64,000 nt of DNA from an uncultured Alphaproteobacteria bacterium. Lineage in GTDB: Bacteria > Pseudomonadota > Alphaproteobacteria > Rs-D84. This document shows positions 1-62,595 of the stretch, piece after piece (positions within the stretch are counted from its first letter, which is position 1; every line of letters starts with the position of its first letter). The stretch spans positions 573,880 through 637,879 of the forward strand of contig OZ007020.1 of assembly GCA_963931495.1 (NCBI GenBank). The letters run 5' to 3'. The position numbers were made by a program, and so were the translations under genes. The notes beneath the pieces were generated by a model that did not search any database, was not told the origin of the DNA, and saw only the letters and a program-made list of their open reading frames with translations.

Positions 1-741
1 CAATAAGTCTTTTCGTATATGCCGAAAATACATTGGGAACCATTCAAAATATTGTGGTGAAAATTCTGCGGATGTTATTGTCCCAGGATGGGTCCGGTGA
101 TACACAGATATATTTTGTGTTTCAACAACCAGATTTGCCCGGTAACATATATCCAACATGAATGTTAAATCGTCGCCAAATGTTTTGAATTCTGGGCGAA
201 ATCGCGTGTTGCCAATTAATTCGCGACGATAAATGCGGCGCCATATCCAACACCATTTACTGGCCAGTGGTGCCAACAAAAAACGCGATGGGTTGTTTGA
301 CGACCCAGATATATTTGGAATCCATGTATGATTTTTTGACGGGATAAATCTGAATTTATCGGCAACAATGTTTGTTGCCCCGCCCGCCATATCGGCCCCA
401 GTTGTTTCGGCCATATGTAATAACATTTCCAGCGCGTATTCTGTAAAACAATCGTCAGAATCCAGAAATGCAATGTAACGACCGCGCGCAATGTCCAGTC
501 CCCTGTTCCGTGCGGCGGATACACCGTCATGTGATGTTTGTTGAATCAGGATAAATCGTTTGTCTTGCTGGGTATATTTGCGAATAATTTGTATGCTGTT
601 ATCGGTACTGGCGTCGTCAATGATGATGCATTCAATATTTTTCAGTGATTGGCATTTGATGGATTCCAAAGCATCGCCAATATATTTGGCGTAATTATAG
701 TTTACGACGATTACAGATATATCTGGTACTGTTTTTGACAT
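1..741 (-). CDS. Family 2 glycosyltransferase (GT2); N-terminal ~247 codons, gene continues past window start
   Basis: Minus-strand frame is open from ATG (revcomp of 739-741) to position 1 with no stop; N-terminus MSKTVPDISVIVVNYNYAKYIGDALESIKCQSLKNIECIIIDDASTDNS matches GT2 signature (VVNYN ... DDxSTD); not in ORF track because no stop inside window. Confidence 0.75.
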   Translation of the reverse strand, partial: MSKTVPDISVIVVNYNYAKYIGDALESIKCQSLKNIECIIIDDASTDNSIQIIRKYTQQDKRFILIQQTSHDGVSAARNRGLDIARGRYIAFLDSDDCFTEYALEMLLHMAETTGADMAGGATNIVADKFRFIPSKNHTWIPNISGSSNNPSRFLLAPLASKWCWIWRRIYRRELIGNTRFRPEFKTFGDDLTFMLDICYRANLVVETQNISVYHRTHPGTITSAEFSPQYFEWFPMYFRHIRKDLL

Positions 742-749
742 TGTTTGTT

Positions 750-1415
750 TTAATACAGGCAACTGTCTATGTACACGAAACTGCCGGTGCCATCATTCAT
801 TGTTACATCTGGCCTGATATAGCAATCTGTTATTGTGTTCCAATATGCATTGGCCAGCGAACTGCAACTTATTTCAATAACTTGCATATATACGCCGTCC
901 AGCATTTGGCCACCTGGGGTTGTGTATGAACAGAAATACAATTCGCTGCGGCCACCTGCGTCGTATATACCCTGTGGAAAAATAACTTGTCTTGATTCGT
1001 AGCAGTCGCCACGTACACTGTACAGTGACGGGCAAGATGCACATTCATAGTCTGATGCGCAATCATAATAATTTTGTGGTGATGTAACTGTTGTGCCATT
1101 GGCATTTTTGCATTTTGATAAATAGTACCCAGGACTGCATACGCGAATATAGGATTCTTCGGTGGAATAATCAGACAATTCTTTTAGAAGGCGAATAAAT
1201 TTTCCACCACATGTTCCACCATGGCATAGCTTAGATGCACTGCAATACTGGAAAAAAGACGTGTCGTTTTCGGGCATGCCGGTTTGGTTGTAAACGCGTT
1301 CACTGCTTACAACGCCGGTATAGTTACACATCGCCGCGTTTACATCAGATTTGTATATTATGAATACAAATGAACTGATGATTCCCCAAATTATTTTGCC
1401 TATATCTAGTTTCAT
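750..1415 (-). CDS. Secreted cysteine-rich protein, CxxGYY/CxxCP repeat family (paralog of 21630-22446, 41045-41602, 48491-49819)
   Basis: ORF 750-1475; likely true start Met at 1415 (MKLDIGKIIWGIISSFVFIIYKS signal-like); motifs CSPGYYLSKC, CASCPSLYSVRGDCY; 9 nt upstream of GT2 gene on same strand. Confidence 0.6.
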   Translation of the reverse strand: MKLDIGKIIWGIISSFVFIIYKSDVNAAMCNYTGVVSSERVYNQTGMPENDTSFFQYCSASKLCHGGTCGGKFIRLLKELSDYSTEESYIRVCSPGYYLSKCKNANGTTVTSPQNYYDCASDYECASCPSLYSVRGDCYESRQVIFPQGIYDAGGRSELYFCSYTTPGGQMLDGVYMQVIEISCSSLANAYWNTITDCYIRPDVTMNDGTGSFVYIDSCLY

Positions 1416-1440: not shown

Positions 1441-1560
1441 GATGCCGAATCTAAACGGTGGTTTATTTTCAGCAAATTTTATATTGACTTTTTCTTGGTT
1501 TTCTTGATAAAATTCACACGGTTTGTAACCGAAAATAAACCACCGTTTAGATTTGGCATT
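1441..1560. repeat. Paired palindromic element copy A: 30-bp arms 1441-1470 and 1531-1560 (28/30 inverted identity) around 60-bp spacer; unit GCCGAATCTAAACGGTGGTTTA contains GANTC
   Basis: Left arm gatgccgaatctaaacggtggtttattttc; right arm is reverse complement of aatgccaaatctaaacggtggtttattttc; related copies at 21548-21658 and 50785-50901. Confidence 0.8.
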
Positions 1561-6222: not shown

Positions 6223-6920
6223 CCCAGTCTAGCCAAAGTGGAATTAATAGTCAAGCCATCACGTAATACGGGTTCATAGTTCATTGGCAGTCCGTTATAC
6301 AGTTTGTCACCGCCACCTGTACCAATGCGACAGCGTATCAAGACGCGTTCGGCGTTCTGTTTGGCACCAAACAGCGGCACGATTGTTATGTCGCCGCAGT
6401 TGGCGCCGCGCATCGCAAAAACAGCATCAGACATTCGGGATGCATCAATTATGATGCAACAGTATCCACGTGGCCGAACGCGGGCAATGCATTTGCGCGT
6501 CCATTGAATAATGTCTGTGTTATGGTGGGCGTTATGATGTGCCGGTGTGCCGGTGAAATATGGCGGATTGGTTATGACCGCGTCAAATGTGCGTGGGGTG
6601 CGCCACGACATTATGTCGGCGTTTATCAGTTCAATATCGCAATTATTTAATTCGGCGTTTCGGGCGCATTCGGTCAACATTTTGTCTGATATATCAATTC
6701 CGGTAAGTTTAATGTTCGGGTTGTGGGCGTTCAGGCATAATCCAACCCCACCAGTACCAATACCAACGTCCAGTACGGTTCTTATTTTTTCTGGGACAAA
6801 TGCGGCCAGCCATGCGGCATCAGATGTGGCATTGTATTCACCGCGAAACATCCGAACGCGACCGCCCAGCATGGTAAAAATTGCTTGTTTTTGCGCCATA
6901 TGTATATAATAATTCAACAA
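6213..6920 (-). CDS. SAM-dependent N6-adenine methyltransferase (TrmN6/YfiC-like)
   Basis: 235 aa; VLDVGIGTGGVGL SAM motif and NPPYF catalytic motif; overlaps M23 gene start by 10 nt (operon). Confidence 0.65.
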   Translation of the reverse strand: MLNYYIHMAQKQAIFTMLGGRVRMFRGEYNATSDAAWLAAFVPEKIRTVLDVGIGTGGVGLCLNAHNPNIKLTGIDISDKMLTECARNAELNNCDIELINADIMSWRTPRTFDAVITNPPYFTGTPAHHNAHHNTDIIQWTRKCIARVRPRGYCCIIIDASRMSDAVFAMRGANCGDITIVPLFGAKQNAERVLIRCRIGTGGGDKLYNGLPMNYEPVLRDGLTINSTLARLGWI

Positions 6921-6937
6921 AATAAAAAGGCAAGTTT

Positions 6938-7945
6938 ATGTTTGATGATACCGTTATTGTGCAAAGTGCCATCAGTGCGTTTAATAACGTTGCGCTGGTT
7001 GCGCCGGGGTTCTTGTGGTCGGCGATTTTGTCAGTGCCGTTGTTCTTGATTGTGTATTATTGTGGCGACGCATTTATGCAGCGGTTTGGCTGGACCAGTG
7101 GGAATATAAATCGGCGGGTTTCAATCATAACAGTTTTGTTAATACTGGGGTGGTTATTGCTGTTTGGCGGAAATTATGCGGTTTTGCGTGATAATTTAAC
7201 GGTTTTGCCGTTTGCAATGGCTGGGATGTTGTTCTTGGCGGCGATGTTTATTGGGGCGTGGTATAAAGAATTAAAAATACCACAGTATCGCAATCTGTCG
7301 CGGTGGGGAAAGTTTTGTGTGGTCATTGCGTGGGTAATCTTGTTTGCTGTGGCCGGGTTGTCAGATATGCATGCGTGGTGGGGGCCAATAATGCAAATCA
7401 GTGCGCTGGGGGTTGGTATAGTGTTGGGGCGCATGATTGGTGACAAGGTCCGTGATGTGCCATTTGTGCTGGTTTTAATGTTTGGTGTTGCAGTATTGTT
7501 GTTAATGCAGCCAGAATTTTTCCGGTTTGGGCAATTGGGGGCACTGACGCCATTTCATTTGTTGGCACTGGTTTTAATGTCAATGGCGGTAATGGCAACG
7601 TTCGCTGTGCGCATGGTGCGGCCGCGTGGGCGTATTCGTCACAGTGTGTATGTTAAATTAAAGTGGTTGTTGCGATTGATTTCTGTGTTGTGTATGGCGC
7701 TGTTTGTGCTGACAGAATCTGTGCCGGTCTTTATCGGAATGTCTGGGCTGTTGTTTGTTGTGTTCGTAATTTCTGTGTGGCACGCATCAAGTATTAATGC
7801 ACATCTGGGCAATCGTATGTTTGCAATTGCGTTGATGCTGTTCGGGGTGTTGACAACAATGCCGGCGATTTCTGCGCTGGGGATTTTGCGTTGGGTCAGT
7901 TTGCCGACAGAAAACAGATGGCAGCAATTAAAATTCTTGTTATAA
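6938..7945 (+). CDS. Polytopic inner-membrane protein, unknown function
   Basis: 335 aa, ~9 hydrophobic helices, no recognisable motif. Confidence 0.5.
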   Translation: MFDDTVIVQSAISAFNNVALVAPGFLWSAILSVPLFLIVYYCGDAFMQRFGWTSGNINRRVSIITVLLILGWLLLFGGNYAVLRDNLTVLPFAMAGMLFLAAMFIGAWYKELKIPQYRNLSRWGKFCVVIAWVILFAVAGLSDMHAWWGPIMQISALGVGIVLGRMIGDKVRDVPFVLVLMFGVAVLLLMQPEFFRFGQLGALTPFHLLALVLMSMAVMATFAVRMVRPRGRIRHSVYVKLKWLLRLISVLCMALFVLTESVPVFIGMSGLLFVVFVISVWHASSINAHLGNRMFAIALMLFGVLTTMPAISALGILRWVSLPTENRWQQLKFLL

Positions 7946-14284: not shown

Positions 14285-15997
14285 TTATTCGGGATGGGTT
14301 TCGTGTGTTGTCCATGGTTCGTCATTCATAACCAGGTAATACAATTCGGCAAATTCTGTACCAGGGTTACGTATCACGGGGCGGACAACAAAAATATCAA
14401 CATTGCATGCATGATTGCCCTGCTCTGATTGTATTGCCATTAAATTAAAATGAAACTTATCTGCGAAATCCATTGCTTGCAGATACGCGGCATCGTCGTC
14501 AGACGGACTGACCGAATCACCGGCCCACATCAACCACATTCCATGGTTTACAACATTTTCTTGGCCCTGTAAATCATCGGCCGACAGCAATGTCAGTGGT
14601 TTGAATTCAATGTCGTTTGTGAATTCACCAGTGCTGGTTTCGGTCCAATCATACATACCCCCAACAAATCGCAGGGCGCCGTATATAAATCCGCCAGTCC
14701 TTTCCATACGGGCCAATGCGCCAATATTAGACATTGTTGATTGAAATAACCAATCACGAATACGCCCAGAAAATGAACTGCTGCGTGCAATTTTTGTTGC
14801 GTTACGAATTTGGCGCCCACCAGTGTTGGCCGCCCGAACCGCACGCCATGCACGTGCGACAATGTTTCCGCGTTGTGCCGTGCGTAATCCGCGCAATGCC
14901 CGCCGGTATTGATTTAATGATGCGAATGTGTCTGATGCCTGGCGATAGCGACGCACGTCATCAGTATTTTCCAATGTGCGCATTGTTTGTGCGTAATTTT
15001 CAACTTCGGATAATTTGCGCGCGTACCCCGTTGCGTCGGCCACACGGTCAATTTGATTCAATTCGGACATTGCGCGCGCGTATTGTTGCGATGTGCGAAT
15101 ATAATTTGTTACAGATTCTGTTTGGCGCAATGTGCGCATTGTTTGGCTCAGTCCGTTTAACGTGCGGGATGCGCGTGCGGCCTTGGTCGTTCCCAGAATC
15201 GCAGTCCCAGTTCCCATTGTTGCAACGGTTATCGCAACGTCCAGTCCAATTTCCATATATGATATCCACCGTAAATCAGCGTCGCCGGCAACGTAATAAT
15301 CATTTGTGTCATCTGGGATATTCACGGTTTCGTGCATCGCCAGATTTATCATTTCGCGATTACCGGCAATTGCAGATTTGCTGGTGCATCGGTTACCATG
15401 CGGAAATATTTTATCAATGTTGTCATTTATGTACTGCATTGATATGGTGTTGTTTTTGCCGGGACCGATAAAGTCATCCAGACTGCCTGATTCAACAACC
15501 ATTATTGCATACCATGCAGGGTCGGTATTCGTCCAAATGGAATCGTCGCCAGGCCCGCCAATAACTGGATTTGGATTATTGTCAGATGCCAGTGTGCGTC
15601 GTTCGGCCAATTTTATACGCTGGTTCAATATCTTTGGTTGTGTTTCATAGTTTATTTTGATATTGCGGCCAGTTGGAAATGTGTATTGTATCGTTTGTAA
15701 TTTTATTGTTTCGTCATCAGATGCATTGGCAAATTCAGGGCATGCAATTACGTGGCGCAGTACATCAGCATTTTGAAATGTTTGATATATCCATTGTTGG
15801 ATTTTTGTTTCATCGTCTGATGCGTCAACGGTGTTTGCTGTTTTAGCCAGTGCATTTGCAAATACAGTGGTGGAACACGATGTGTCTGGTTGTGCTGTGT
15901 CGCGGTGTATGTCGGGTATTGGTGTATTATCTGCGCAAAGCGCCACATTTGTGGCGCCAACAAAAATAACAAAAAATGTCAAAATTTTTTGCAGCAT
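14285..15997 (-). CDS. Secreted protein with internal degenerate repeats (TMRTLRQTE.../AQTMRTLENTDD...), unknown function
   Basis: 570 aa; signal peptide MLQKILTFFVIFVGATNVALCA; 3-nt gap to upstream gene. Confidence 0.6.
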   Translation of the reverse strand: MLQKILTFFVIFVGATNVALCADNTPIPDIHRDTAQPDTSCSTTVFANALAKTANTVDASDDETKIQQWIYQTFQNADVLRHVIACPEFANASDDETIKLQTIQYTFPTGRNIKINYETQPKILNQRIKLAERRTLASDNNPNPVIGGPGDDSIWTNTDPAWYAIMVVESGSLDDFIGPGKNNTISMQYINDNIDKIFPHGNRCTSKSAIAGNREMINLAMHETVNIPDDTNDYYVAGDADLRWISYMEIGLDVAITVATMGTGTAILGTTKAARASRTLNGLSQTMRTLRQTESVTNYIRTSQQYARAMSELNQIDRVADATGYARKLSEVENYAQTMRTLENTDDVRRYRQASDTFASLNQYRRALRGLRTAQRGNIVARAWRAVRAANTGGRQIRNATKIARSSSFSGRIRDWLFQSTMSNIGALARMERTGGFIYGALRFVGGMYDWTETSTGEFTNDIEFKPLTLLSADDLQGQENVVNHGMWLMWAGDSVSPSDDDAAYLQAMDFADKFHFNLMAIQSEQGNHACNVDIFVVRPVIRNPGTEFAELYYLVMNDEPWTTHETHPE

Positions 15998-16000
15998 TAA

Positions 16001-17188
16001 TTACAGTCCTGATACACTGCCGATTGATTGACCACATGTATCAATGATGCGTTGGCGTTCGCTTGATATACGCCGTATCAATTCATCATATGGATCTTGT
16101 GTCGGATTATTCGGCTTTGTATATGGTGGAACCGGTACCGTTGTGCCCGATTGAACACATGTATTACCAGAACGTGTATAGCCATCAATACATGTCCATG
16201 TATAGCAAATATTTGTGGTGTCTGGAATATATTTTATATATGATTCAATTCCCACCGCAGGTTCTGTTTCGCCGGCACAGAAACGGGTTGTGCATTCGGG
16301 GGTCCAAAAATCGTTGCGGAACATGCTTTGCGGCCAAGATGCTTCGGTATCAGACCATGTGGTGTTATCTTTCATTTTCCCTTGCAAGCATTGGCGGACC
16401 ATTGGTTCAACAGGTGTCGGTGCAGCGGCATCGGCGGGTGCGCCACAAAACATATAATCACCAATGTTGGCCAGCCGTTCGCCCTTGTTGAATACGGTGT
16501 TGCAACATGTAAATTGTCTGGTTATCGGGTCGTATAGACAATCTGTTTCTGAAAATAATTGGGATCCAGCAACCAGTCCACCAACCAGTGCGCCGGCACC
16601 AACGGCGGCCCCATATCCAATTTGACCAAGCACAGGTATTGCATTGACCACAGCGGCCCCACCCGCAGCGGCGGTGGCGCCACTGACCACGCCCTGGACA
16701 ACGTCGCCCCACGAATGTTCATCGTTACCAGATGCGGCATTTATTACACCGGCGGTTCCCGCCACTGCGCCAACCGCACCCAGTGCCCCGGTTGCAAGAT
16801 TGCGTGCATTTATGCGGGGGCCGCCCTGGTTTTGTGGGGATGTGTTCCCCATGGGTGGAACAACGGGTGGAACATTGCCGGCGGATGTGGCCCCGGCGGC
16901 AACATTTGTGTTACCTGTGACAGATGCGCCCGATGTTCGTTGTTGGGCCGGGATTGATTCATCAATGGATACAATTTTTGACCCGGCGGTGGTCGGTGCG
17001 TTAAGGCGCATCCCAGTGTCGCGATTACGATAATTTAATGTTTGGCCATCGTCACCAACGGTTAATGTTGCCTGGCGGGTTGTTTGCTGCCATGCATCTG
17101 GATTAGAAATATTTGATATATCCAGTGCAAACGCCGATGATGTTGCGAATAATGCCACGACAGTGAAAGAAGCAATTTGATGTTTCAT
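16001..17188 (-). CDS. Secreted protein with glycine-zipper (GxxxG/AxxxG) region and C-terminal Cys-rich domain
   Basis: 395 aa; signal peptide MKHQIASFTVVALFATSSAFA; GALGAVGAVAGTAGV...GAAVGAGALVGGLVAG glycine zipper. Confidence 0.6.
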   Translation of the reverse strand: MKHQIASFTVVALFATSSAFALDISNISNPDAWQQTTRQATLTVGDDGQTLNYRNRDTGMRLNAPTTAGSKIVSIDESIPAQQRTSGASVTGNTNVAAGATSAGNVPPVVPPMGNTSPQNQGGPRINARNLATGALGAVGAVAGTAGVINAASGNDEHSWGDVVQGVVSGATAAAGGAAVVNAIPVLGQIGYGAAVGAGALVGGLVAGSQLFSETDCLYDPITRQFTCCNTVFNKGERLANIGDYMFCGAPADAAAPTPVEPMVRQCLQGKMKDNTTWSDTEASWPQSMFRNDFWTPECTTRFCAGETEPAVGIESYIKYIPDTTNICYTWTCIDGYTRSGNTCVQSGTTVPVPPYTKPNNPTQDPYDELIRRISSERQRIIDTCGQSIGSVSGL

Positions 17189-17191
17189 ATT

Positions 17192-18097
17192 TTAATACTT
17201 TCCATTTAATTGGGCCAGACAATCTGAAATTGGAATCCCAGAATCACGACATTTTTGCGCCGTTGCCAAATCTGCATCAATTATAGACAGGCGGGCGATT
17301 TCCTTGGTACAGAATGCGTTTACGCGGTTATTGTAATCTTCTTCGCTTTCAATGGTTATTGTGCGATATGCGGATGCGTCTTTGTACGGGGCGTATCCTG
17401 CCGCGTCATTTTGCATGCGTTCGGTAAATGATAAATCCGCCGCCGTTGTGGGAAATGCCGTTGCCACCAACACAGAATCACCGGTGCTGTTCGCAGATTG
17501 TAAATTTTTTAATTCTTGTTCGCGTTGTAATTTTTCCAGTGCCCATGGTTCGCCGTTCCATACCGGTAACTGTTGCTGGTACGGGTTTTGAAACTGAACC
17601 CCCTGTTGCGTTGCCGCGGTATTCGGACCGGTTGCCGTTGGGAATGCAACCGTCGTTCCAGTTGGTGCCGCAATCGCATTTTCAGATACGTATTTTTCAA
17701 ATTCAGTATCAATATATCCGCCACATGGTGTTACATAGTTATGATTTGGTAAACTGGCCAATTGGACGGTCAGTGTCGGGCGGGCGTCATCCACGTCCAC
17801 ACCAACACAATTATTGCGCGACGCACAGTATGATGCCACCAGTGCACCGACAATCGCCTGGCAATCAGCGGTTGATACGTCAGTACCCTGGGCATATACG
17901 GGAACTGGCATGCGTTGGTTATACGGACTGTCCGGGTTCCAGAATGGATTTGATGAATAATTCTGTACGTTCTGTATCTGGCCATACTGGGAAAATGGCG
18001 ACGGTGTCGTTGTTGTATTAATCGTTGTCGCAGTGGCCGAATTCATTATCCCGACAATAAATGCGCACACAGATGCAGATAAAATACGTATTTTCAT
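17192..18097 (-). CDS. Secreted protein, unknown function
   Basis: 301 aa; signal peptide MKIRILSASVCAFIVGIMNSATA. Confidence 0.6.
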   Translation of the reverse strand: MKIRILSASVCAFIVGIMNSATATTINTTTTPSPFSQYGQIQNVQNYSSNPFWNPDSPYNQRMPVPVYAQGTDVSTADCQAIVGALVASYCASRNNCVGVDVDDARPTLTVQLASLPNHNYVTPCGGYIDTEFEKYVSENAIAAPTGTTVAFPTATGPNTAATQQGVQFQNPYQQQLPVWNGEPWALEKLQREQELKNLQSANSTGDSVLVATAFPTTAADLSFTERMQNDAAGYAPYKDASAYRTITIESEEDYNNRVNAFCTKEIARLSIIDADLATAQKCRDSGIPISDCLAQLNGKY

Positions 18098-18130
18098 TCC
18101 CCCCGTCCATTTTTTCTTTGTTTCATAGTA

Positions 18131-18598
18131 TTATATCAAAAACCAGATTATAATTAAAGACAAAATTCCACCACCGATAAAGAAAGGTGCAAACGGGATG
18201 TATTTTTGTTTTCGGGTTCCGCCCCATAACAATCCGGCAATACATGCCAAGGCCAGCGCGATTGCCAGTCCTGTTATCCCCAACCATAATCCGCCCACAG
18301 ATATTAATTTTATATCCCCCATTCCGATCGGAATATCGGACTTGTTGTGGTGTTTGTTTCGCATGCTGAATATCAAACCAATTACGGTGGTTAATACGTA
18401 TCCAAAGATAGCGGCGATTACGGCGTCGGCAATATCAATCGGCCACGGAAAGAAATTTATGATTGTTAATCCAATCAGCATCATCGGAAACAGGTATGCG
18501 TCGGGGATAATTCTGCGCCGCCAATCAGCAACAGAAATGCGCCATGCGCACCATGCGGCTGTGACCAGTAATAAAACAAAAAAGATGGTATAAAACAT
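18131..18598 (-). CDS. cpaA: Tad/Flp-type prepilin peptidase (A24 aspartic peptidase, CpaA/TadV-like, no methyltransferase domain)
   Basis: 155 aa polytopic; catalytic Asp motifs RIIPD and GMGDIKLISVGGLWLG (cf. GGGDVKL of A24 family); first gene of a 5-gene minus-strand operon. Confidence 0.75.
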   Translation of the reverse strand: MFYTIFFVLLLVTAAWCAWRISVADWRRRIIPDAYLFPMMLIGLTIINFFPWPIDIADAVIAAIFGYVLTTVIGLIFSMRNKHHNKSDIPIGMGDIKLISVGGLWLGITGLAIALALACIAGLLWGGTRKQKYIPFAPFFIGGGILSLIIIWFLI

Positions 18599-19199: not shown

Positions 19200-21431
19200 G
19201 TGGGGTGTCATTATATGACAAGCGAGAGGGAAAATATGAATTCTGTTTTAACACCGCGGGAATATGACATTGCCGGCAATTCTTTTCGTGCGTACCGTGA
19301 TTCAGATGGCAAGTTGGTGTTCGTTATTGATAATACGTTAAATGAACGTAAAACGAATGTGATGCTGGTTATAAATCCTGTGGGTGACAGAAAATGGGAT
19401 GATATTTTGGCGAATGATTACGCCGTTGATTTAGAAACAGTTCGCCCAAAGAAAGATAATAAATATCAAAAACTGGATATTGAATACAGCGGATTGGCGG
19501 AATATGATGATTTAATTCGTGCATACGAAAACGGCGATGATTTAACCAGTGCGCTGGGGGCATTGGCGCGTTTTCGGGATGCGTCGGTGCGTCGGGCGGC
19601 GATGGAACGGTTGTCGGTGGCCGAAGCAAATGCCGCGCGTGCGCGCGATACAATATTAAAAACAAATGATTCAATTGCCGAATTGCGTGTGCGGTTGCGT
19701 CAGTTGCGTCGTACATTGGCAAATCAAAAAAATCAAATTGGGCGCGAGCCAACAAAACAATCTGCATCAAAAATATTACGAACAGATGCGCAAATTGATG
19801 CCATAAATGAAAAATTGCGTCGCGCGGAACGTCGCCTGGACAATGCCCAGCGGCGGTTGGTTGTCGCTGATGAAGATGCCGCAGTGGCACGGAATATTTT
19901 GGCATGTGACCCGGTCGCGGGGGATTCTGGGGTGGGCGTAACGTCGGTGATTGATGTTCTGCGTCCGCATGATGTGGATGTTCAAAACCAAAATTTGCCG
20001 GTAATTCAGCCGCGTAATGATTTGATTGCAACAACCCCGGTCCCAGATGCGGATGTATCGGATGTGGATGCACCGGATGGCGATGTTGTTGACCCAGGTG
20101 CGTCTGGTGATGCGGAATATAATGTTGACTATGACCAGGATTTTAATGTAAATATAACAGAACAACCAAAGGCGGATATGATGGCCGAAGAAGATGTAAA
20201 ACCACTGTTTGATAAAAATCCAGAAATTCTGGACGAAGAAATTGCGTTTAAGCCAATTCAGTTTGGTGTTTCCAGTCCGGTGTCGGATGAACAAAATCAA
20301 TCAGACGTGTCGTCTGGGGATAATAATGATGTTTTATCAGGGGCGCCATTATCATTTACGCCGCCGGCGGAAAGTAAGCCCAGTGTAACGAATGATGCGT
20401 CGCCATCAGATAATCAATACGCGCAACAACCGTCCCCTGTGCTGGACAGTTTGTCTGCGGTTGGTGCAACCCCGGCCCCAGAAACAAATGTAGAACAAAC
20501 AAACGATGTTGTACAACCGGCGGCGCCGTCGGCGGCCAACAGACCGGCACCTGTGATGCCAAATGTTGCGCCGGAAAATACGTTGGGCAACAACATTCCA
20601 AACAATAATTATGTTAATGAAAATTCACAGACTGTGCCTGCACCGGCTGGGGGTGCGCCAATTGCAAATGCGCCCCGCCCTGTGTCGCCAATAACTGGTA
20701 CACCGGCACCAACAAATCCGGCACCACGTCGTCCGACGGCAATATATTACATAATGTTAGTATTGTTGATTGCGTTATCGGTATTTACGTTGTGGCTGTA
20801 CCAGAAAAATACGAATGATGGTTCGCCTGACTTGACGGCAACGGTACCGCCAGCCGAAGAAAATGTTGCGGTGGATGTGGTTGTTGATGACGTGGACAGC
20901 CCGTTTGTGCCAACCATAACAACAACGGACACGGAACCAGATGTGGTCACCACGGTTGTCGCAGATGTGGCCCCGGATACTGGGGACATGGTGGAATCGG
21001 TTGTTGCACCGGAAACTGTCCAGGATGTTGACATTGAACCGGTCGCGGAATTAATTCCAGAACCAGAACCGGTTGTCGTCCCGGAACCTGTGCAAGATGT
21101 CCCGCCGGTCATAGAAACAACAACCGTGGCACCGGTTGTGACGCCGGCACCGATACTGGAACCAGAACCAGTTGTTATTGAAAGCGAAGAAGAAATATTG
21201 GCAAACAAGCCGGCATATAATGTTTCACAAAATGAAAACATGTTTGTTGCCGACCCAGAATATGAAACAGAAACACAGTATACTGTGACGCAAGATTTGC
21301 CAAAATGCCCAGACGGTTCGGCACCCGATATGAATGGGTGTTGCCCGGGCGAGATATATACGGATCTGGGGGCGGCTGGGTTTAATTGTTGTCCGGAAAC
21401 GGGCGGTGATTGTTTCCCGCCATTGTTATAA
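19200..21431 (+). CDS. Large single-pass membrane protein: N-terminal coiled coil, long Pro/Asn-rich disordered region, TM helix, acidic PEPEPV-type repeats, C-terminal CC-rich knot (alternative start at 19236)
   Basis: 743 aa; TM IYYIMLVLLIALSVFTLWLY; repeats VVPEPVQDV / EPEPVVI; C-term KCPDGSAPDMNGCCPGEIYTDLGAAGFNCCPETGGDCF; starts 1 nt after gcrA stop. Confidence 0.6.
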   Translation: MGCHYMTSERENMNSVLTPREYDIAGNSFRAYRDSDGKLVFVIDNTLNERKTNVMLVINPVGDRKWDDILANDYAVDLETVRPKKDNKYQKLDIEYSGLAEYDDLIRAYENGDDLTSALGALARFRDASVRRAAMERLSVAEANAARARDTILKTNDSIAELRVRLRQLRRTLANQKNQIGREPTKQSASKILRTDAQIDAINEKLRRAERRLDNAQRRLVVADEDAAVARNILACDPVAGDSGVGVTSVIDVLRPHDVDVQNQNLPVIQPRNDLIATTPVPDADVSDVDAPDGDVVDPGASGDAEYNVDYDQDFNVNITEQPKADMMAEEDVKPLFDKNPEILDEEIAFKPIQFGVSSPVSDEQNQSDVSSGDNNDVLSGAPLSFTPPAESKPSVTNDASPSDNQYAQQPSPVLDSLSAVGATPAPETNVEQTNDVVQPAAPSAANRPAPVMPNVAPENTLGNNIPNNNYVNENSQTVPAPAGGAPIANAPRPVSPITGTPAPTNPAPRRPTAIYYIMLVLLIALSVFTLWLYQKNTNDGSPDLTATVPPAEENVAVDVVVDDVDSPFVPTITTTDTEPDVVTTVVADVAPDTGDMVESVVAPETVQDVDIEPVAELIPEPEPVVVPEPVQDVPPVIETTTVAPVVTPAPILEPEPVVIESEEEILANKPAYNVSQNENMFVADPEYETETQYTVTQDLPKCPDGSAPDMNGCCPGEIYTDLGAAGFNCCPETGGDCFPPLL

Positions 21432-21459: not shown

Positions 21460-21547
21460 ATCGGTATATCAAATATCGGATTGATTTTTGTTGATTTGTT
21501 TTTGGCAGATTTGGTATAATTCACCGCGTGAAAGTGATGATATTTAT

Positions 21548-21658
21548 GCCTAATCTAAACCACCGTTTATAATGGCGATTTTTATTTTTGTAAAAATCCC
21601 AGAATTCTGCATTTTTTGTCCCCCACTTTTTGCCGAATCTAAACGGTGGTTTAGATTC
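21548..21658. repeat. Paired palindromic element copy B (arms 21548-21577 and 21631-21658)
   Basis: Right arm tgccgaatctaaacggtggtttagattc (perfect 24-bp palindrome around GGTGG core, two GANTC); left arm gcctaatctaaaccaccgtttataatggcg. Confidence 0.75.
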
Positions 21659-22446
21659 AATTATATTATGTGTGATGGCGATGTTGCCGTTTTCCGGATA
21701 TGCGGCGGTATCTTACCCCGGGGACGAGGCGGGATCTTGGTGCAGTTCGGGTTTTACATGGTGTACCGATATGGCGGGAACATTTGGATGTTGTGCCCCC
21801 CAGACAGCGTCATGCGGGAACGGTGCGTATTGTAAGACCGGTGGTGGCGGTGGTGGTGCCGGTACCGGCGGCAGTGCCACGTGTACACAAAAATTTTCAT
21901 GCACCGGTTCGGCATCAGAGATAAATTCTGTCAGTAATTGCGCGGTTTCGTTAACCAGTTGTTATGGTGATGCTGCAAGCAATCCAGTTGTGACGTGTAC
22001 CAGATGTTTAACCGGGTATGACATGACCGCAATGTATATCAGTCTGGATGGTGATTGTCGGAATGTATCCATACAGTATTTATTATACGTGTACCAAGGA
22101 TGACGGTGGTGGTGGTGATGGCGGTGGTGATGGTGGTGGCGGTGACATCGGAACAATTTGTCAGAATTGTACCAATTCGGCGGGGGTGTGTACAATGACA
22201 TCGCCAAAGTGTTGCCCACCATGTGATGAAAGTGCCGTGGGTCCAGTGGAATGTCCGGCGGGACAGTATGGGTTTTCTGCATCAAACTGTCAACCATGTC
22301 CGGTGGGGCCAAACGGCGAATCAACCACCAGTATAAAGGGGCAGAACAGAAGTATCACCGGATGCTATATTGCGGCGGGCACGGAATTTTCAGATGACAC
22401 AGGCAGTGGTGTATATGTGGAAAAGTGTAGTTATTCTTTGATATAA
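21630..22446 (+). CDS. Secreted Cys-rich CxxCPxGY-repeat protein, apparently split by a frameshift into ORFs 21630-22103 and 22048-22446 (possible pseudogene or phase-variable gene)
   Basis: Both ORFs carry family motifs (CAPQTASCGNGAYC..., CQNCTNSAGVC, CPPCDESAVGPVECPAGQYG, CQPCPVGPNG); frames differ by +1 just upstream of a (GGT/GGC)n tract; annotated start at 21630 is TTG inside the repeat, a Met at 21675 is more plausible. Confidence 0.45.
22105..22146 (+). repeat. Simple-sequence tract (GGT/GGC/GAT)14 encoding poly-Gly/Asp
   Basis: ggtggtggtggtgatggcggtggtgatggtggtggcggtgac immediately after the frame break. Confidence 0.8.
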
Positions 22447-22855: not shown

Positions 22856-22981
22856 GGATGTATCCTCCCCTGTGTTATTGATTTTACGGTTATGGCATAC
22901 TAGGCACTTTTTGCCGATTCGTGCAAGCATAAAATATATACTTGCATTTAATACGGTGGGATTGTATAAATATGTGCATGT

Positions 22982-23058
22982 CGGGGCGTAGCTCAGCCTG
23001 GTAGAGTACTTGCATGGGGTGCAAGGGGTCGCAGGTTCAATTCCTGTCGCCCCGACCA
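22982..23058 (+). tRNA. tRNA-Pro (anticodon GGG), CCA encoded
   Basis: Acceptor CGGGGCG/CGCCCCG, anticodon stem CTTGC/GCAAG loop ATGGGGT. Confidence 0.88.
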
Positions 23059-23076
23059 TTTTTGTTTATTAAACGA

Positions 23077-23313
23077 CTATTGTGTTGTTGAATCGTCGTA
23101 CACAGAATACGTTGTATTTCCAATACGGATTTTTACATTCCCTGTGACATTTGGTGACATGTCGCCATAGAATAATTTATCTGAATATTCCAGGACCAAT
23201 GACGGTGTTGTGCGGCGCGCACTGCGCATGTGTACAGTTTTGTCACCAATGTGCAGTGTTCGCCCACAATCATTAATATCATCCGCCCCGGTCCCGTATC
23301 CAATTGTTGTCAT
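23077..23313 (-). CDS. Hypothetical Gly/Thr-rich protein; open frame extends upstream to 23474 without an ATG
   Basis: 78 aa from first ATG; upstream in-frame 54 codons (RIGRKITTYIAYKNIRQINGGSYIDTPKSDVCINVGPEYWIGENYTNYGATGTRNACGGG) lack ATG/GTG/TTG. Confidence 0.3.
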   Translation of the reverse strand: MTTIGYGTGADDINDCGRTLHIGDKTVHMRSARRTTPSLVLEYSDKLFYGDMSPNVTGNVKIRIGNTTYSVYDDSTTQ

Positions 23314-23474
23314 GCCGCCACCGCATGCGTTGCGTGTGCCGGTTGCGCCATAGTTTGTATAATTTTCGCCAATCCAATATTCTGGGCCAACGTTTATACA
23401 GACATCTGATTTTGGGGTATCAATGTATGAACCGCCATTAATTTGACGGATATTTTTGTACGCAATATATGTTG

Positions 23475-40597: not shown

Positions 40598-40604
40598 TTT
40601 TTAT

Positions 40605-40937
40605 GTACAGACGCCCGATAAGCCGGATTCTGTTCTGCCCTGGCCTTGTTGTTGCCAACCAAAACCGGGGTAGCGAGCATAATTAGTCTGCATAATGTGT
40701 TACCACAATATGTCAAGCCTTCTACCCGTCCCCTTGTTTGGGACACACATTGGGGACCTATTTGAAGTTGCTGCGCGCAGAGATTGCCCGTTTCACCCGA
40801 TATGTTTCAATCGATTCGTCACTGTTGCTCTGATCGTCGGGTTGCCCCGCCCGGTCATTAGCCGGTACGCCGTCCCATGCAGTCCGGACTTTCCTCCAAT
40901 TTTCCAAAGAAAATCAGCTATGCTCTGTTCGTCTGCA
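40605..40937 (-). ncRNA. rnpB: RNase P RNA, bacterial type A
   Basis: Minus strand reads GGAGGAAAGTCCGGACTGCATGGGAC (P4 5' strand) and ACAGAATCCGGCTTATCGGGCGTCTG (P4 3' strand/3' end); 5' GCAGACG pairs with 3' CGTCTG (P1); ~333 nt; no protein ORF. Confidence 0.8.
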
Positions 40938-41044: not shown

Positions 41045-41602
41045 GTGAGAAGAATGTCAAAAATTTTACGCATTTTTGCGTGTTTGTTTGCGTTGTTTTT
41101 TGTTGTTGATGCGTCTGGTGCGGGGTATACATGCTCTGCGTCGTCCAAGAAATATACATCATGCAAATCCGGATATTATATGTATGGTGGTACAGGTGCC
41201 GGAAATTCATGTAAAAAATGTCCGACGGGATATCCGAATTCGGCGGGTGGGAACATTGGTCAAAGCATGTGCTATAAGACATGTGAAGACATAGATATTA
41301 CCGGTGGGACGAATGTACCGACCAGTGGCACAGCGTATTATGGCAACAGTTGCACATATACGACGATTTGTGACGACGGGTATAATCTGACGGGGACAAA
41401 CACGTGCAGCCAGTTATGTACACTGGGTGTGACCAGTCTGCGTACGGGCAATGGTGTGACGATACCGTTGTACAGTTCGGCATTATCCACGCCATCGTTA
41501 AACATTGGTACTGGTGGTGGCGTATGCTATGGCATATTGGAAAGTGGTGCGGGAACACTGAACATCCAATATGACGGCAAAACGTATCATGTAATTGATT
41601 AA
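41045..41602 (+). CDS. Secreted Cys-rich CxxGYY/CxxCPxGY-repeat protein (paralog family)
   Basis: 185 aa; signal peptide; CKSGYYMYGGTGAGNSCKKCPTGYPNSAGGN, CDDGYNLTGTNTC. Confidence 0.6.
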   Translation: MRRMSKILRIFACLFALFFVVDASGAGYTCSASSKKYTSCKSGYYMYGGTGAGNSCKKCPTGYPNSAGGNIGQSMCYKTCEDIDITGGTNVPTSGTAYYGNSCTYTTICDDGYNLTGTNTCSQLCTLGVTSLRTGNGVTIPLYSSALSTPSLNIGTGGGVCYGILESGAGTLNIQYDGKTYHVID

Positions 41603-48448: not shown

Positions 48449-48469
48449 TCGCATCGCCGTTAACAAAAA

Positions 48470-48492
48470 ATCCCGCAGTTGCGGGATTTTTT
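48470..48492. terminator. Bidirectional terminator between dnaK and Cys-rich gene
   Basis: atcccgca-gt-tgcgggat flanked by aaaaaa / tttttt. Confidence 0.7.
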
Positions 48493-49819
48493 ACATTGAA
48501 TAAATTTTAATGTCACCCAGGTTAAAACAACCGTATTGGTCGCAAAAATTTGTGCCGCCATCAATGTAACATTCTTGTTCTGTTTTTGCACCAGCAGCAG
48601 ATGTTGAACCCGCCGGACACGGGGTTTCTATGCCATTGGGGCAATAATATCCGGCCTTGCAATCGCGGTAATGCGGAACCAATACGCGTTGCAGTTCATC
48701 CGTGAACATAAATGTATCGTCGGGATAGTATTTGCTGGTTGCGCATGATGTTTTTTTTGTGTCCACAATAAAGCAGTCGTAATGTGTAAAAACTTTACCA
48801 TGTTTATACCAAGTTTTTGGTAATGCTTTGACGGTACGTTCGGGCGCGTCGGAGTTATGTTTAACATTGAATGATACGTCGGCTTTGGTTGAAATATCGC
48901 CGCCGTTGTATTCTTGAAGATACCATATTTGGATATCATGTATTTCGTATTGTGCGTACAGATTTTTTTCGTCGTATGAACGCAAACTCATTTGATCAAA
49001 TTCGCCAGATGTACTTATTACAAGATTCACATCAGATGCATCGTCTGAGCTGGAATAATAGCCCAAGAATTTATAATATTCTGTGGATGGCTGGTTATAT
49101 TTAGACGGCATATTGGATTGGCCATCTATGCCATTATCCCAAACCAATGTTATTGTTTGGTCAGAATATGTTTTTGGTAAATTTTCCGTATATGGATTAT
49201 TATGTTTTAATGTAATTTTGTATTCATTCGGTATGCAGCGATCGTCATGACCGTTGTTTGTACTGTTGGGCGCGGTTGAACCAGAACCAAAGAATTCCAA
49301 ATCTTTATCATTTCCGTGATATCCGTCGCGACATTTGTAACAGCCTTTTTCCGTGTTGTCCCAATAATATCCAGATTGGCACACCAGTCGCCATGGGCAA
49401 TTGTCCTGTGTGTTACCATATGCGTTCAGCAAATCGTCATCAAATGAATATTTTGTTGAATTATTTGGTGATTTTGGCGTACTGCAAGTATGGCTGCACA
49501 TTGTTAAATCATGCAGCCCCGCTGATCCGGTACCTGCGGGTGGCAAGTATGTCCCAGGTTCGCACTGTAAGCACGAAAAGTTTTTTTGATCATATGAACA
49601 TCCGGGGGCGCATTTGAATCCCACACTGCATGTGACAGACGGGTCATGCAATTCATTGCCACAATACAAATAACAAACTTCTGTGTTGGGGGGCCATGTG
49701 TCTGGCAGTAATGTTTCTGGATCATCAGCACCCGCCGCAGCAAGCGCAGATTGCATTGCTGGTAATGTTGTGCATATCAGACAGAATGTATACGATATTA
49801 TATTTTTTTTGATGTTCAT
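48491..49819 (-). CDS. Large secreted Cys-rich CxxGYY/CxxC-repeat protein (paralog family)
   Basis: 442 aa; signal peptide MNIKKNIISYTFCLICTTLPAMQSALA; CLQCEPGTYLPPAG, CQSGYYWDNTEKGCYKCRDGYHG, CKAGYYCPNGIETPCPAGS. Confidence 0.6.
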   Translation of the reverse strand: MNIKKNIISYTFCLICTTLPAMQSALAAAGADDPETLLPDTWPPNTEVCYLYCGNELHDPSVTCSVGFKCAPGCSYDQKNFSCLQCEPGTYLPPAGTGSAGLHDLTMCSHTCSTPKSPNNSTKYSFDDDLLNAYGNTQDNCPWRLVCQSGYYWDNTEKGCYKCRDGYHGNDKDLEFFGSGSTAPNSTNNGHDDRCIPNEYKITLKHNNPYTENLPKTYSDQTITLVWDNGIDGQSNMPSKYNQPSTEYYKFLGYYSSSDDASDVNLVISTSGEFDQMSLRSYDEKNLYAQYEIHDIQIWYLQEYNGGDISTKADVSFNVKHNSDAPERTVKALPKTWYKHGKVFTHYDCFIVDTKKTSCATSKYYPDDTFMFTDELQRVLVPHYRDCKAGYYCPNGIETPCPAGSTSAAGAKTEQECYIDGGTNFCDQYGCFNLGDIKIYSM

Positions 49820-49830
49820 GAGAATCTAAA

Positions 49831-50286
49831 TCAATGTTGTTTTTCTTGGTTGATTGTCCATCCATTTTGGATAAACCATAAACTGTCAGCAGGTATTTTA
49901 GATGCTTCGCCGGGGCGAAAATCAAAATTGCCGTGTCCGCGAATTTTGGGTGACATGTTTATTATTGGTTCCAACTGTAAATGGCGCAGGCTGGTGATGT
50001 TGTTGTACATCATACGACGCCATGAACCTGTGGCGTGCAGGTAAATTGTTTCTGTGCCAGGGTGTGACATATAATAGTCTAATATATCACTGGGGCGAAT
50101 TGTGCCGTCACTGTTCATATCATATACAGTTTGTGTGTTGTTAATATCAAACTGTATGGTGATTTCAGATGGTGCCGGTGCCCATGTTATTTCAGGGTCA
50201 CAAGATGTTACCAGCCCTGCCCCGGCAATACCCAGTGCGGGTAATAATGTTTTTATTTTGTATGGTATAATTTGTTGAAACTTCAT
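49831..50286 (-). CDS. Lipoprotein, tandem paralog 1
   Basis: Start MKFQQIIPYKIK at 50286; lipobox LVTSC; ~45% identical to upstream neighbour (shared ...NFDFRPGEASKIPADSLWFIQNGWTIN...). Confidence 0.55.
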   Translation of the reverse strand: MKFQQIIPYKIKTLLPALGIAGAGLVTSCDPEITWAPAPSEITIQFDINNTQTVYDMNSDGTIRPSDILDYYMSHPGTETIYLHATGSWRRMMYNNITSLRHLQLEPIINMSPKIRGHGNFDFRPGEASKIPADSLWFIQNGWTINQEKQH

Positions 50287-50291
50287 GTCTG

Positions 50292-50735
50292 TTACCGTTG
50301 TTTTTGGTTGTTTATTGCCCACCCATTTTGCACAATCCATGCACTGTCGGATGGTACTTTTGACGCTTCGCCGGGGCGAAAGTTAAAATTGCCATTCCCA
50401 TAAATTTTTGGTGAATAATTTTTTGCTGGTTCAAGAACGTTTGTACGTAAATTATGTATATCGTCGCTGAATAACGTGTTATAGTTTCCAGATGCAACAA
50501 TATAAACTGTGTCTGTATAATCATAATCGGCGTATGAATATACCATATCCATAAATTCTTGATTGCCGTCGTTATATATGGAATTCGTTCCACCCGGCAG
50601 TATCAGTTGGATGCTGCGTTGCGGAACGGTTAACGGTTCATTTTTTTCACACGACGTGGTTAATCCACATCCGATTAACCCGAATATTGGGATGATATGT
50701 TTCAATTTATATGGCGTAATTTGTTTGAATGACAT
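50292..50735 (-). CDS. Lipoprotein, tandem paralog 2
   Basis: Start MSFKQITPYKLK at 50735; lipobox LTTSC; NFNFRPGEASKVPSDSAWIVQNGWAIN. Confidence 0.55.
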   Translation of the reverse strand: MSFKQITPYKLKHIIPIFGLIGCGLTTSCEKNEPLTVPQRSIQLILPGGTNSIYNDGNQEFMDMVYSYADYDYTDTVYIVASGNYNTLFSDDIHNLRTNVLEPAKNYSPKIYGNGNFNFRPGEASKVPSDSAWIVQNGWAINNQKQR

Positions 50736-50784
50736 ATGACCTGTTCCCCTTTGTCTTGTTTTATTTTTCAAGGATATAAAAAAC

Positions 50785-50901
50785 TGCCGAATCTAAACGG
50801 AGGTTTATATTCGGCACAAATGGATAAATAAAAATGGCGGAATATCGGGTGTTTTTTTTTCAGTTAATGTAAATAAAAAAAACCTCCGTTTAGATTCGGC
50901 A
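50785..50901. repeat. Paired palindromic element copy C (units 50785-50816 and 50880-50901), GGAGG/CCTCC variant, flanked by T/A runs on both sides
   Basis: tgccgaatctaaacggaggtttatattcggca (self-palindromic) and aaacctccgtttagattcggca = exact reverse complement of first 22 nt; lies between pfk stop and lipoprotein-gene start. Confidence 0.8.
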
Positions 50902-50966
50902 GGCTTTTTTGTTGTCTATGCACTGATTATATTGGCTTTTTAATCCATTGGCAAGAATTTTTTCGT

Positions 50967-61972: not shown

Positions 61973-62557
61973 GTGAAGCAAATGTCACGTACAATGCAAG
62001 ACAAAATAAATGCGTATGATGCCGCCACGCGTGTATTAGAACACCAGGTTGATTTTATGCGTACGCCGCCAGAATTCAAACCGCTGTACAATATGTCGGA
62101 TATCGTTCGTAAATTTCGTTCGGCGTTTTTAATCCCGGATTTGCGTAATGCGGTGCTGGCGAAAAAATATGAACGCGAACGTATTAATGCGGGGCGATTT
62201 TCTGCGGGATTTTGCGGCATTGCCAGTTATACGTGGGCGCATTTGTTTCGGATGCCAAATGGTGATGCGTTGTGGCGGATAAAGCACTATAAAAATAATC
62301 GTACACGGTATGGATTGTCGGATCATGTTTGGATGGAAAGTAAATTTGATGGGTCGGTGCTGGATTTGGCGTTTGACCAGTCGGTTGACGAATCTGGCAC
62401 ATTTGTTGAAATACCGTACGATTTGGGCGTTGATGCGGACGAATATTTTGAATTCGGTCGGGCATATAAATTTGCAGAATATTTGGGTATGAAAATAAAT
62501 TTTCCAGATATTGTGCGTGAAAATATGGCATGGCACATGCGTGCGGGACGTGATTAA
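61973..62557 (+). CDS. Hypothetical protein, tandem paralog A
   Basis: 194 aa; shares GFC(G/A).., A(L/I)W, (L/I)AFD..D....(I/V)PY(D/E)LG blocks with downstream ORF. Confidence 0.45.
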   Translation: MKQMSRTMQDKINAYDAATRVLEHQVDFMRTPPEFKPLYNMSDIVRKFRSAFLIPDLRNAVLAKKYERERINAGRFSAGFCGIASYTWAHLFRMPNGDALWRIKHYKNNRTRYGLSDHVWMESKFDGSVLDLAFDQSVDESGTFVEIPYDLGVDADEYFEFGRAYKFAEYLGMKINFPDIVRENMAWHMRAGRD

Positions 62558-62595
62558 AATTGATATTTTTATAAATTTATGCTACAATTTCCCGC

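Follow-up and report, generated by a model that had tools for sequence, protein, structure and literature searches.

Miniature inverted-repeat elements, two of them found in both orientations, precede putatively phase-variable loci for cysteine-rich secreted proteins in an uncultured Rs-D84 alphaproteobacterium

Invertons, i.e., DNA segments that flip between inverted repeats, have been catalogued in gut bacteria with PhaseFinder and PhaVa (PMC10028968; Jiang et al. 2019, as cited there), and they are classed as intergenic, partial intergenic, or intragenic (PMC10028968, PMC9881135). Enterousia and the order Rs-D84 are described as gut inhabitants that have genomes smaller than ~1 Mb and probably depend on a partner, in a paper that gives no account of such switches (PMC12306168). 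Here, we analyzed a stretch of 64,000 nt from an uncultured alphaproteobacterium of the Rs-D84 lineage (contig OZ007020.1, positions 573,880 to 637,879 of the forward strand; hereafter, the window), in which three short elements, E1, E2, and E3, adjoin genes for predicted secreted cysteine-rich proteins. We propose, with a probability of about 0.75, that gene A, gene B, and the L2-L1-D gene cluster of this window are phase-variable loci for surface or secreted proteins, each placed behind a miniature invertible element that is bounded by two inverted copies of one site. At E1 and E3, different samples carry the segment between the site cores both ways round at one and the same locus. An initial annotation of this DNA had described four dispersed cysteine-rich protein genes; what it missed is the regulatory link between loci, a shared family of invertible DNA switches. 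Loci and contigs from other samples and metagenome-assembled genomes (MAGs), all of them assembled contigs compared with the window, are referred to by L-numbers.

The three strongest inverted repeats listed for the window (I1, I2, and I6; weaker palindromes apart) share one 30-bp near-palindromic site, GCCGAATCTAAAC-GGTG-GTTTAGATTCGGC. Its full form, GCCGAATCTAAAC-GG[T/A]G-GTTTAGATTCGGC, consists of two inverted half-sites around an asymmetric core. The motif AATCTAAACGG[T/A]GGTTT has six occurrences in the window, where 0.23 are expected, and these form three inverted pairs, which lie directly 5′ of A, B, and L2-L1-D, the loci of the only three open reading frames (ORFs) found by a family hidden Markov model (HMM) built without window sequences. 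Arms of 18 to 34 nt with 88 to 100% complementarity place E1, E2, and E3 within the inverted-repeat definition of an inverton; the elements span ~115 to 130 bp in total and their interiors ~60 to 70 bp. This is the layout of a putative site-specific recombinase target, and it fits the 12-6-12 arrangement of tyrosine recombinases and a gix/hix-like arrangement equally well. The hix and gix sites of the Hin and Gin systems are 26 bp long, with two inverted ~12-bp half-sites that end in ...AAACC and a 2-bp core. At the site center, E3 reads TAAACG-GA-GGTTT and gix reads TAAACC-GA-GGTTT. The Hin and Gin systems also involve an invertase gene beside the site, an enhancer, and segments much longer than those of E1 to E3.

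E1 (positions 1442 to 1559, without strand; arms 1442 to 1470 and 1531 to 1559, 29 nt and 97% complementary; interior 1471 to 1530) sits 27 nt 5′ of the ATG of gene A (750 to 1415, minus strand). This gene, the first of A-GT2-GT8, encodes a predicted secreted protein of 221 amino acids (aa) with 14 Cys and the C-terminal module of the family described below. Within the interior, a σ70-like promoter (1484 to 1513, plus strand; TTGACT-N18-TAAAAT, matching the consensus at 10 of 12 positions, with a TG extension) is directed toward leuS in the window, and A-GT2-GT8 is therefore predicted to be OFF. We compared the window with six contigs carrying an identical LeuRS and five carrying one protein A allele (P0001). 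Among these 12 contigs, the E1 interior (60 to 63 bp) was found both ways round between collinear flanks, the promoter facing A in 5/12 (ON) and pointing away from it in 7/12 (OFF). Specifically, the interior of L120 and L153 to L156 is reverse-complemented relative to that of the window, L117 to L119, L121, L122, and L157. L120 is the only contig with a reverse-complemented 60-bp interior among the six with identical LeuRS, and its flanks are collinear too. L153 to L156 and L157 agree in flanks and arms and differ solely in the E1 interior, which is exactly reverse-complemented between them. The outer ends of the E1 arms show an A/G asymmetry that keeps its place while the interior flips, which locates the breakpoints inside the arms. 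Homologous elements of the same site orientation ("+,-") in L034, L070, and L007 likewise carry interior promoters, at 10 to 11 of 12 consensus positions; those of L034 and L070 point away from the adjoining cysteine-rich gene, and that of L007 points toward it.

Next to A and on the same strand, as the initial annotation had noted, lies a GT2 glycosyltransferase gene (1 to 741, minus strand; PF00535, 4e-38) that is cut by the window edge and starts at position 741, 8 nt past the stop codon of A. On another contig (L117), the GT2 product has 315 aa and its gene is followed by an overlapping GT8 gene. Given the 8-nt distance between A and GT2 and the overlap of GT8 with GT2, A-GT2-GT8 looks like one operon. 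The GT2 neighbor, previously taken as a hint that A is glycosylated, is better read as a co-regulated member of the phase-variable operon A-GT2-GT8.

E3 (50778 to 50908, without strand; arms 50778 to 50811 and 50875 to 50908, 34 nt and 88% complementary, with the core GGAGG/CCTCC; interior 50812 to 50874) sits 43 nt before L2, the first gene of the L2-L1-D operon (48491 to 50735, minus strand; L2, 50292 to 50735; L1, 49831 to 50340; D, 48491 to 49819). This element demonstrably flips: three contigs from three samples, L127, L161, and L166, carry its interior reverse-complemented, and about ten other contigs carry it in the window-like orientation. In the flipped contigs, the dissimilar inner halves of the arms are swapped, and the crossover must thus have occurred within the shared 23 bp. 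The E3 core reads GGAGG instead of GGTGG, a change that is matched in both arms. A promoter-like site (50926 to 50954, minus strand; TTGCCA-N17-TATAAT, an 11/12 consensus match) lies outside the element on its upstream side. Gene D, on the minus strand, is intact and encodes 442 aa with 24 Cys. L1 and L2 (49831 to 50735, minus strand) are tandem paralogous genes for putative lipoproteins (42% identity, 1.7e-41) with ORFs overlapping by 49 nt; neither product matched Pfam or NCBIfam, and both genes are presumably co-transcribed with D. The whole D-L1-L2-E3 cassette (~2.3 kb; window positions 48450 to 50970) is missing between dnaK and pfk in L125, L126, and L130, in which just the last ~140 nt of D are left (at 6890 to 7095). 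Site-specific excision was considered for this loss and rejected in favor of a plain deletion that left the 3′ end of D behind.

E2 (21547 to 21660, without strand; arms 21552 to 21569 and 21640 to 21657, 18 nt and 100% complementary, each near-palindromic) overlaps the 5′ end of gene B (21630 to 22446, plus strand) and represents a second type of element, type Q, as opposed to the promoter-bearing type P of E1. It contains a leader cassette (21550 to 21624, minus strand) with a Shine-Dalgarno (SD) sequence, GGGGGA, at 21619 to 21624, an ATG at 21612, and the mini-ORF MQNSGIFTKIKIAIINGGLD*, which points away from B (OFF). Flipping E2 in silico yields MQNSGIFTKIKIAIINGGLDSIILCVMAMLPFSGYAAVS..., with a complete predicted signal peptide. 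Interiors of this type carry, on one strand, an SD sequence, an ATG 5 to 8 nt further on, and a conserved leader of exactly 13 codons (MQxSGIFxKIK, with variants such as MQNSGIFTKIK, MQISGIFSKIK, MQKSAIFINKK, and similar). At eight loci (E2 of the window, L003, L005, L020, L074, L094, L106, and L116), SD, ATG, and the 13 codons are in frame with the arm, which is read as (P)NLNGG, and L149 carries a similar leader. The reading frames follow the orientation of the leader. Where it is directed toward the gene (L106 and L074), the ORF continues through a hydrophobic segment into a cysteine-rich protein, which in L106 has 193 aa in the ON state and ends in ...ITSCYLPAGSAFKDNSGNWIYTANCYYK with the family module. 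Where it faces away (E2 of the window, L003, L005, L094, L093, and L149), the mini-ORF stops a few codons beyond the arm, and in OFF-state loci of this type a C-rich stretch devoid of an SD sequence precedes the gene body or arm. The contigs L133 and L137 end at the left arm of E2, as expected if the assembly graph branches there.

At E2, E3, and several relatives, promoter-like sites lie 46 to 65 nt beyond the distal arm; the one upstream of E2 (21491 to 21520, plus strand; TTGATT-N18-TATAAT) is a consensus match, at 10/12. A motif resembling the type Q interior (AAAAAT-CC-CAGAWTTCTG-C) is also present just outside the distal arm in L005, L094, L074, and L106, and at 21500 to 21515 of the window. 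In this place it may serve an accessory protein or belong to the outside promoter. A σ54 reading of the conserved type Q motif was dropped, as the GG-GC spacing is one base short by eye.

Gene B itself is the locus at which the earlier count of four cysteine-rich signal-peptide genes needs amending. ORFs exist at all four places, and the one at 21630 to 22446 is split into two frames (21630 to 22103 and 22048 to 22446) by a 4-nt insertion near 22080 (CAGTAT[TTAT]TATACG). Intact versions of 252 to 257 aa are encoded on eight other contigs, and one contig has a gene B truncated in a GGD repeat. A (GGT GGT GAT)n tract beside the insertion (region 22053 to 22150) varies in length between strains and accounts for that truncation, in L147. 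Frameshifted B products are on record from several contigs (P0087, P0080). Together with the loss of the D-L1-L2-E3 cassette elsewhere, the frameshift illustrates decay at the strain level.

The favored reading can be put as a mechanism. A site-specific recombinase encoded elsewhere in the ~0.96-Mb genome would flip the 60- to 70-bp interiors. In type P (E1), the interior would be a σ70-type promoter that transcribes A-GT2-GT8 in one orientation, the window orientation being OFF. In type Q (E2), the flip would place an SD sequence, an ATG, and a 13-codon leader, and with them the charged N-terminal end of the signal peptide, in front of the gene body; the crossover site would then lie inside the coding sequence and be translated as PNLNGG, and the switch would act on translation initiation downstream of a fixed promoter. 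The predicted state of E2 in the window is OFF, with B frameshifted besides.

Related elements are not confined to this strain. A scan of one genome per species recovered at least ~35 loci from gut alphaproteobacterial MAGs among the 116 matches listed, with several loci per MAG; among these matches, paired sites recur in Candidatus Enterousia and in MAGs labelled "uncultured Alphaproteobacteria", and the adjoining genes mostly encode cysteine-rich or other signal-peptide-bearing or secreted proteins. The spacing is narrowly set. Centers of "-,+" pairs are 78 to 80 bp apart in 11/12 of the cases listed, with 92 bp in the remaining one, and those of "+,-" pairs are 89 to 90 bp apart in all seven listed. 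The two spacing classes differ by one helical turn, which suggests that synapsis, across a very short loop, requires a particular helical phase. A metagenome scan added one further element (L149) and one chance match. In addition, the ORF upstream of the signal peptide of a 980-aa protein in L041 (MAG SIG50) reads through both arm translations (LPNLNGG and LNHRL), and this gene also appears to be preceded by a switch.

Genes A, C, and D are intact, each with a plausible Sec signal peptide as judged from sequence, and the Cys content of the cysteine-rich proteins of the window ranges from 5.4 to 9.1%. The motifs on which a four-locus paralogous family had been based (CSPGYYLSKC, CKSGYYMYGG, CKKCPTGYPNSAGG, CQPCPVGPNG, CLQCEPGTYLPPAG, CQSGYYWDNTEKGCYKCRDGYHG, and CKAGYYCPNGIETPCPAGS) are all present in the translations. 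BLASTP among the four proteins gave weak pairwise matches pointing to a shared C-terminal stretch, an ending also common to the ORFs beside related switches in other MAGs. From the 862 ORFs of the window, an HMM trained on 41 members from outside it retrieved exactly B (6.4e-21), A (2.4e-8), and D (2.5e-5), with no match to C, to a 743-aa protein, or to a 395-aa protein (both described below); A, B, and D thus form one family, and C shares with them repeat motifs only. Their common domain is a C-terminal module of ~65 aa with the consensus C..GYY.....C..CP...G.TS..G.T.IT.CYIPSGT.FSD.TG...YT..CYYS. Searched against 1.84 billion representative proteins, the module profile detected 78 clusters at 50% identity (E ≤ 1e-3), bearing out the view of a lineage-expanded family of secreted cysteine-rich proteins; nearly all of these proteins are 80 to 290 aa long, begin with a signal peptide, and carry the module at their very C-terminal end. 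Word-index homologue searches with A, the C-terminal alignment, and a 65-member alignment returned just near-identical sequences.

The proposed likeness to eukaryote-type repeats holds at the family level and not for the window proteins. Among 65 family members compared with Pfam (E ≤ 0.01), 11 matched Ephrin_rec_like (PF07699; best, 4.4e-9), four TNFR_ELAPOR1_6th (PF23091), two NCD3G, one Giardia VSP, and one Furin-like_2. None of A, the two B frames (B1 and B2), C, and D reached a Pfam model at E ≤ 1, Ephrin_rec_like, TNFR_ELAPOR1_6th, TNFR_c6, and Furin-like included; in a Pfam search, neither the four window proteins nor the 743-aa protein nor seven relatives matched a cysteine-repeat model significantly, and NCBIfam gave no match for the cysteine-rich proteins. 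The conserved tail, CY[IL]P.GT.FSD.TG...YT..CYYS, matched nothing in Pfam, NCBIfam, or the PDB. Structure prediction, which had been suggested as a check, succeeded in part: AlphaFold2 modeled the C-terminal module with confidence (predicted local distance difference test [pLDDT] score, 94.1) and full-length A poorly (pLDDT, 58.7); a Foldseek search from the latter was meaningless. The module model had no significant PDB match in Foldseek, and a profile search of PDB sequences found nothing. Of the weak Foldseek matches, those highest in TM-score and identity were the cysteine-rich domains of TNFRSF9/4-1BB, at E values of ~7 to 8, a lead and not evidence. The analogy with ephrin-receptor-like and TNFR repeats is hence reasonable at the level of the family. 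The controlled proteins are small, predicted to be Sec-exported and disulfide-rich, and built from ephrin-receptor-like or TNFR-like CxxGYY...CxxCP repeats, and they probably serve as cell-surface or adhesive proteins of a partner-dependent gut bacterium.

Sister strains of the window carry another protein of this kind. A cysteine-rich secreted protein of 656 to 658 aa is encoded between adk and acpS (L141, 7662 to 9632; also L142, L146, L147, and L148), and its 656-aa version clears the TNFR_ELAPOR1_6th cutoff (34.7 bits versus 33.2). It is absent from the window strain, where the equivalent position is ~22860 to 23470, beside tRNA-Pro (22982 to 23058). A structured-looking region of ~150 nt precedes the gene in the sister strains.

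These matches to Ephrin_rec_like, TNFR_ELAPOR1, VSP, and Furin-like models in some family members, together with the reduced genome and the proposed partner-dependent lifestyle of the lineage (PMC12306168), would suit an account with no switches at all, i.e., a constitutive, lineage-expanded adhesin family acquired from or mimicking a eukaryotic host, beside which the inverted repeats are incidental. We regard this account as unlikely. It leaves aside the fixed-spacing site pairs upstream of family genes in many MAGs and the finding of the enclosed DNA both ways round; no window protein reached any Pfam model, no eukaryotic homologue was obtained, and none of the results pointed to acquisition from or mimicry of a eukaryote.

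A second alternative accepts the arms as functional and denies the switching: the inverted repeats would act as RNA or DNA hairpins (5′ untranslated region [5′-UTR] attenuators, terminators, or RNase III sites) or as paired repressor operators, with inversions that are rare, fixed, and repeat-promoted. The promoter-like sites upstream of E2 and E3 would have the elements transcribed as long stem-loops, each arm is palindromic like the binding site of a dimeric regulator, and the compensatory core change in E3 is also what a hairpin requires. We nonetheless hold it to be quite improbable, since inversion recurs (5/12 contigs at E1, with both states on one allele, and three independent samples at E3), since the oriented signals of the interiors, a promoter or an SD-ATG-leader in frame with the arm, are left unexplained, and since the reading frame of type Q loci is open in the ON configuration and closed in the OFF one. 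Insertion of miniature inverted-repeat transposable elements (MITEs) upstream of genes in either orientation would agree with the size of ~125 bp, the terminal inverted repeats, the multiple copies per genome, and the intergenic location. We consider this explanation very improbable: copies with conserved arms differ in their interiors (promoter versus leader), the flanks show no target-site duplication, and the arm is part of the reading frame of downstream genes. Furthermore, the fixed outer A/G asymmetry in L153 to L156 versus L157 indicates that the whole element did not excise and reinsert. Finally, assembly artefacts are scarcely credible as the source of the orientation differences: assemblers can be misled by inverted repeats, and some contigs end at E2, but the arms (18 to 34 bp) are far shorter than reads and the labelled k-mers (k87), single reads span a ~125-bp element, and both orientations appear in independent assemblies from different assemblers.

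Several observations weigh against phase variation by inversion. The orientation differences are between samples, as represented by assembled contigs, and the promoters are matches to a consensus only. At E2, ~13 contigs all showed one orientation with no flip among them, and none of eight predicted ON-state B proteins had an exact counterpart in the protein collection. No orientation-specific signal was identified in the E3 interior. In Candidatus Enterousia avistercoris, type Q interiors lack the leader ATG and have an ATG at the arm edge instead, which makes the subtype a non-uniform one. The signal peptides and the surface location are predictions from sequence only. No recombinase gene was detected by Pfam in the 64-kb window, 27 window ORFs included, or by tblastn and phmmer, with Hin, XerD, and FimB as queries, in the neighborhoods fetched for related elements; the same type of search found no Hin-like ORF near any element in these neighborhoods, and it yielded just a XerD-like C-terminal fragment at the edge of L081. 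In addition, 79 to 90 bp between cores seems very short for known invertases.

The remainder of the window provides the setting. Housekeeping genes encode LeuRS, SecA, DnaK, RuvB, LpxA/B, S1, ribosomal proteins, and GcrA (PF07750), the last of which is a marker of Alphaproteobacteria; the G+C content is ~44%, and identical window proteins occur in many human gut assemblies. Gene C (41045 to 41602, plus strand; 185 aa, 12 Cys) combines CxxGYY repeats with a different C-terminal domain and has no inverton; this domain is common to the 980-aa protein of L041 (2428 to 5367, minus strand), which has 9.9% Cys and many CxAGYYxxGxxCxxCxxGYYCPG repeats. The apparently empty region upstream of C is filled by RNase P RNA (40603 to 40936, minus strand; RF00010, 192.6 bits). 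The 743-aa protein (19200 to 21431, plus strand), encoded directly after gcrA, has a coiled-coil N terminus, a long acidic and Pro-rich low-complexity region, one hydrophobic segment, and a CC-rich C-terminal end, and it matches no family; the relation of this "CC-rich knot" to the cysteine-rich proteins, asserted initially, was not detectable by BLASTP or the family HMM. Three secreted proteins of 570, 395, and 301 aa with no Pfam match (14285 to 18598, minus strand) are encoded downstream of a prepilin peptidase gene (PF01478), and the 395-aa protein has a cysteine-rich C terminus (CIDGYTRSGNTCV) that the family HMM did not detect. Two adjacent ORFs (61973 to 63087, plus strand; 194 and 163 aa) with no Pfam match are distant paralogues (23% identity over 149 aa, 3e-6).

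Beyond the window, the data invite a wider and more tentative proposal, to which we would give somewhat less than even odds. The elements may represent an undescribed class of ultra-short invertons, with 79 to 80 or 89 to 90 bp between cores in two helical-phase classes, that is spread across reduced-genome gut Alphaproteobacteria of the Rs-D84/Enterousia type. One subtype would be a "translation-initiation inverton" that carries the ribosome binding site (RBS), the start codon, and the N-terminal codons of the signal peptide, with the site translated as PNLNGG. One recombinase acting in trans, perhaps an Xer-like enzyme recruited to the role as in Mycoplasma, would then serve a genome-wide phase-variable surface of ephrin-receptor-like cysteine-rich proteins. 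Bacteria of this type are widespread in human and animal guts, uncultured, and thought to depend on partners, with genomes of ~1 Mb (PMC12306168). A dedicated set of switches, placed before a large family of secreted disulfide-rich proteins and before glycosyltransferases, singles out the molecules with which the cell may meet a host, a partner cell, or phages. The site motif lets every switch of the lineage be found and scored in metagenomic reads, and it turns the missing recombinase into a clearly defined search problem. The short segment, the strict helical phasing, and a crossover site within the signal-peptide coding region may extend the known repertoire of invertons.

Among described systems, E1 resembles invertible promoters such as fimS of E. 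coli, the polysaccharide and surface-protein promoters of Bacteroides, and gut invertons, in that inverted repeats surround a promoter, in E1 a predicted one, the orientation of which would set the transcription of a surface-structure operon downstream. As in gut invertons, one site family is common to many loci of a single genome, and the organism inhabits the gut. Unlike in fimS and the Bacteroides invertons, the host is an uncultured alphaproteobacterium with a reduced genome, the elements fall into two spacing classes one helical turn apart, and no recombinase was found for E1 to E3 in the window and fetched flanks. fimS measures 314 bp, and E1, with an interior of 60 to 63 bp and 89 bp between cores, is much smaller than fimS or typical Bacteroides invertons.

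The surface-protein switches of Mycoplasma (vsa of M. pulmonis, vpma of M. agalactiae with Xer1 [PMC2268961], and vsp of M. bovis) likewise belong to host-dependent bacteria with small genomes. There, site-specific inversion in or near the 5′ coding region connects the body of a surface-protein gene with a promoter and a 5′ end that takes in the signal-peptide region, as proposed, promoter apart, for type Q. In contrast, one Mycoplasma expression site is shuffled among silent genes over kilobases, whereas each gene here has a private cassette of ~66 bp, and the proteins are unrelated. In the 5′-UTR switches of Clostridioides difficile (cwpV [PMC2784873] and flgB), the element lies between a fixed promoter and the gene and acts once transcription has begun, as it would in E2 and E3; those switches work by orientation-dependent termination, whereas type Q would supply or remove an RBS, a start codon, and leader codons. 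Partial intergenic and intragenic invertons and other gene-altering inversions (PMC10028968, PMC9881135) also have one repeat inside a coding sequence and change the protein, as proposed for type Q. However, most of those described exchange C-terminal or specificity domains (shufflons, hsdS) or recode the interior of a gene, and their segments are longer; in the literature compared (PMC10028968, PMC9881135), we found no minimal cassette of just an SD sequence, an ATG, and 13 codons. As for the proteins, the family has the spacing C-x2-G-Y-Y...C-x2-C-P-x-G...[ST]-x-C of Ephrin_rec_like (GCC2_GCC3, PF07699), TNFR_ELAPOR1_6th, and Giardia VSP; it differs from them in that the window proteins score below these models and the family ends in a conserved tail of its own. 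What is new in these elements is their lineage, a minimal size with fixed phasing, the shared 30-bp site, and a cassette of SD, ATG, and leader with a translated crossover site.

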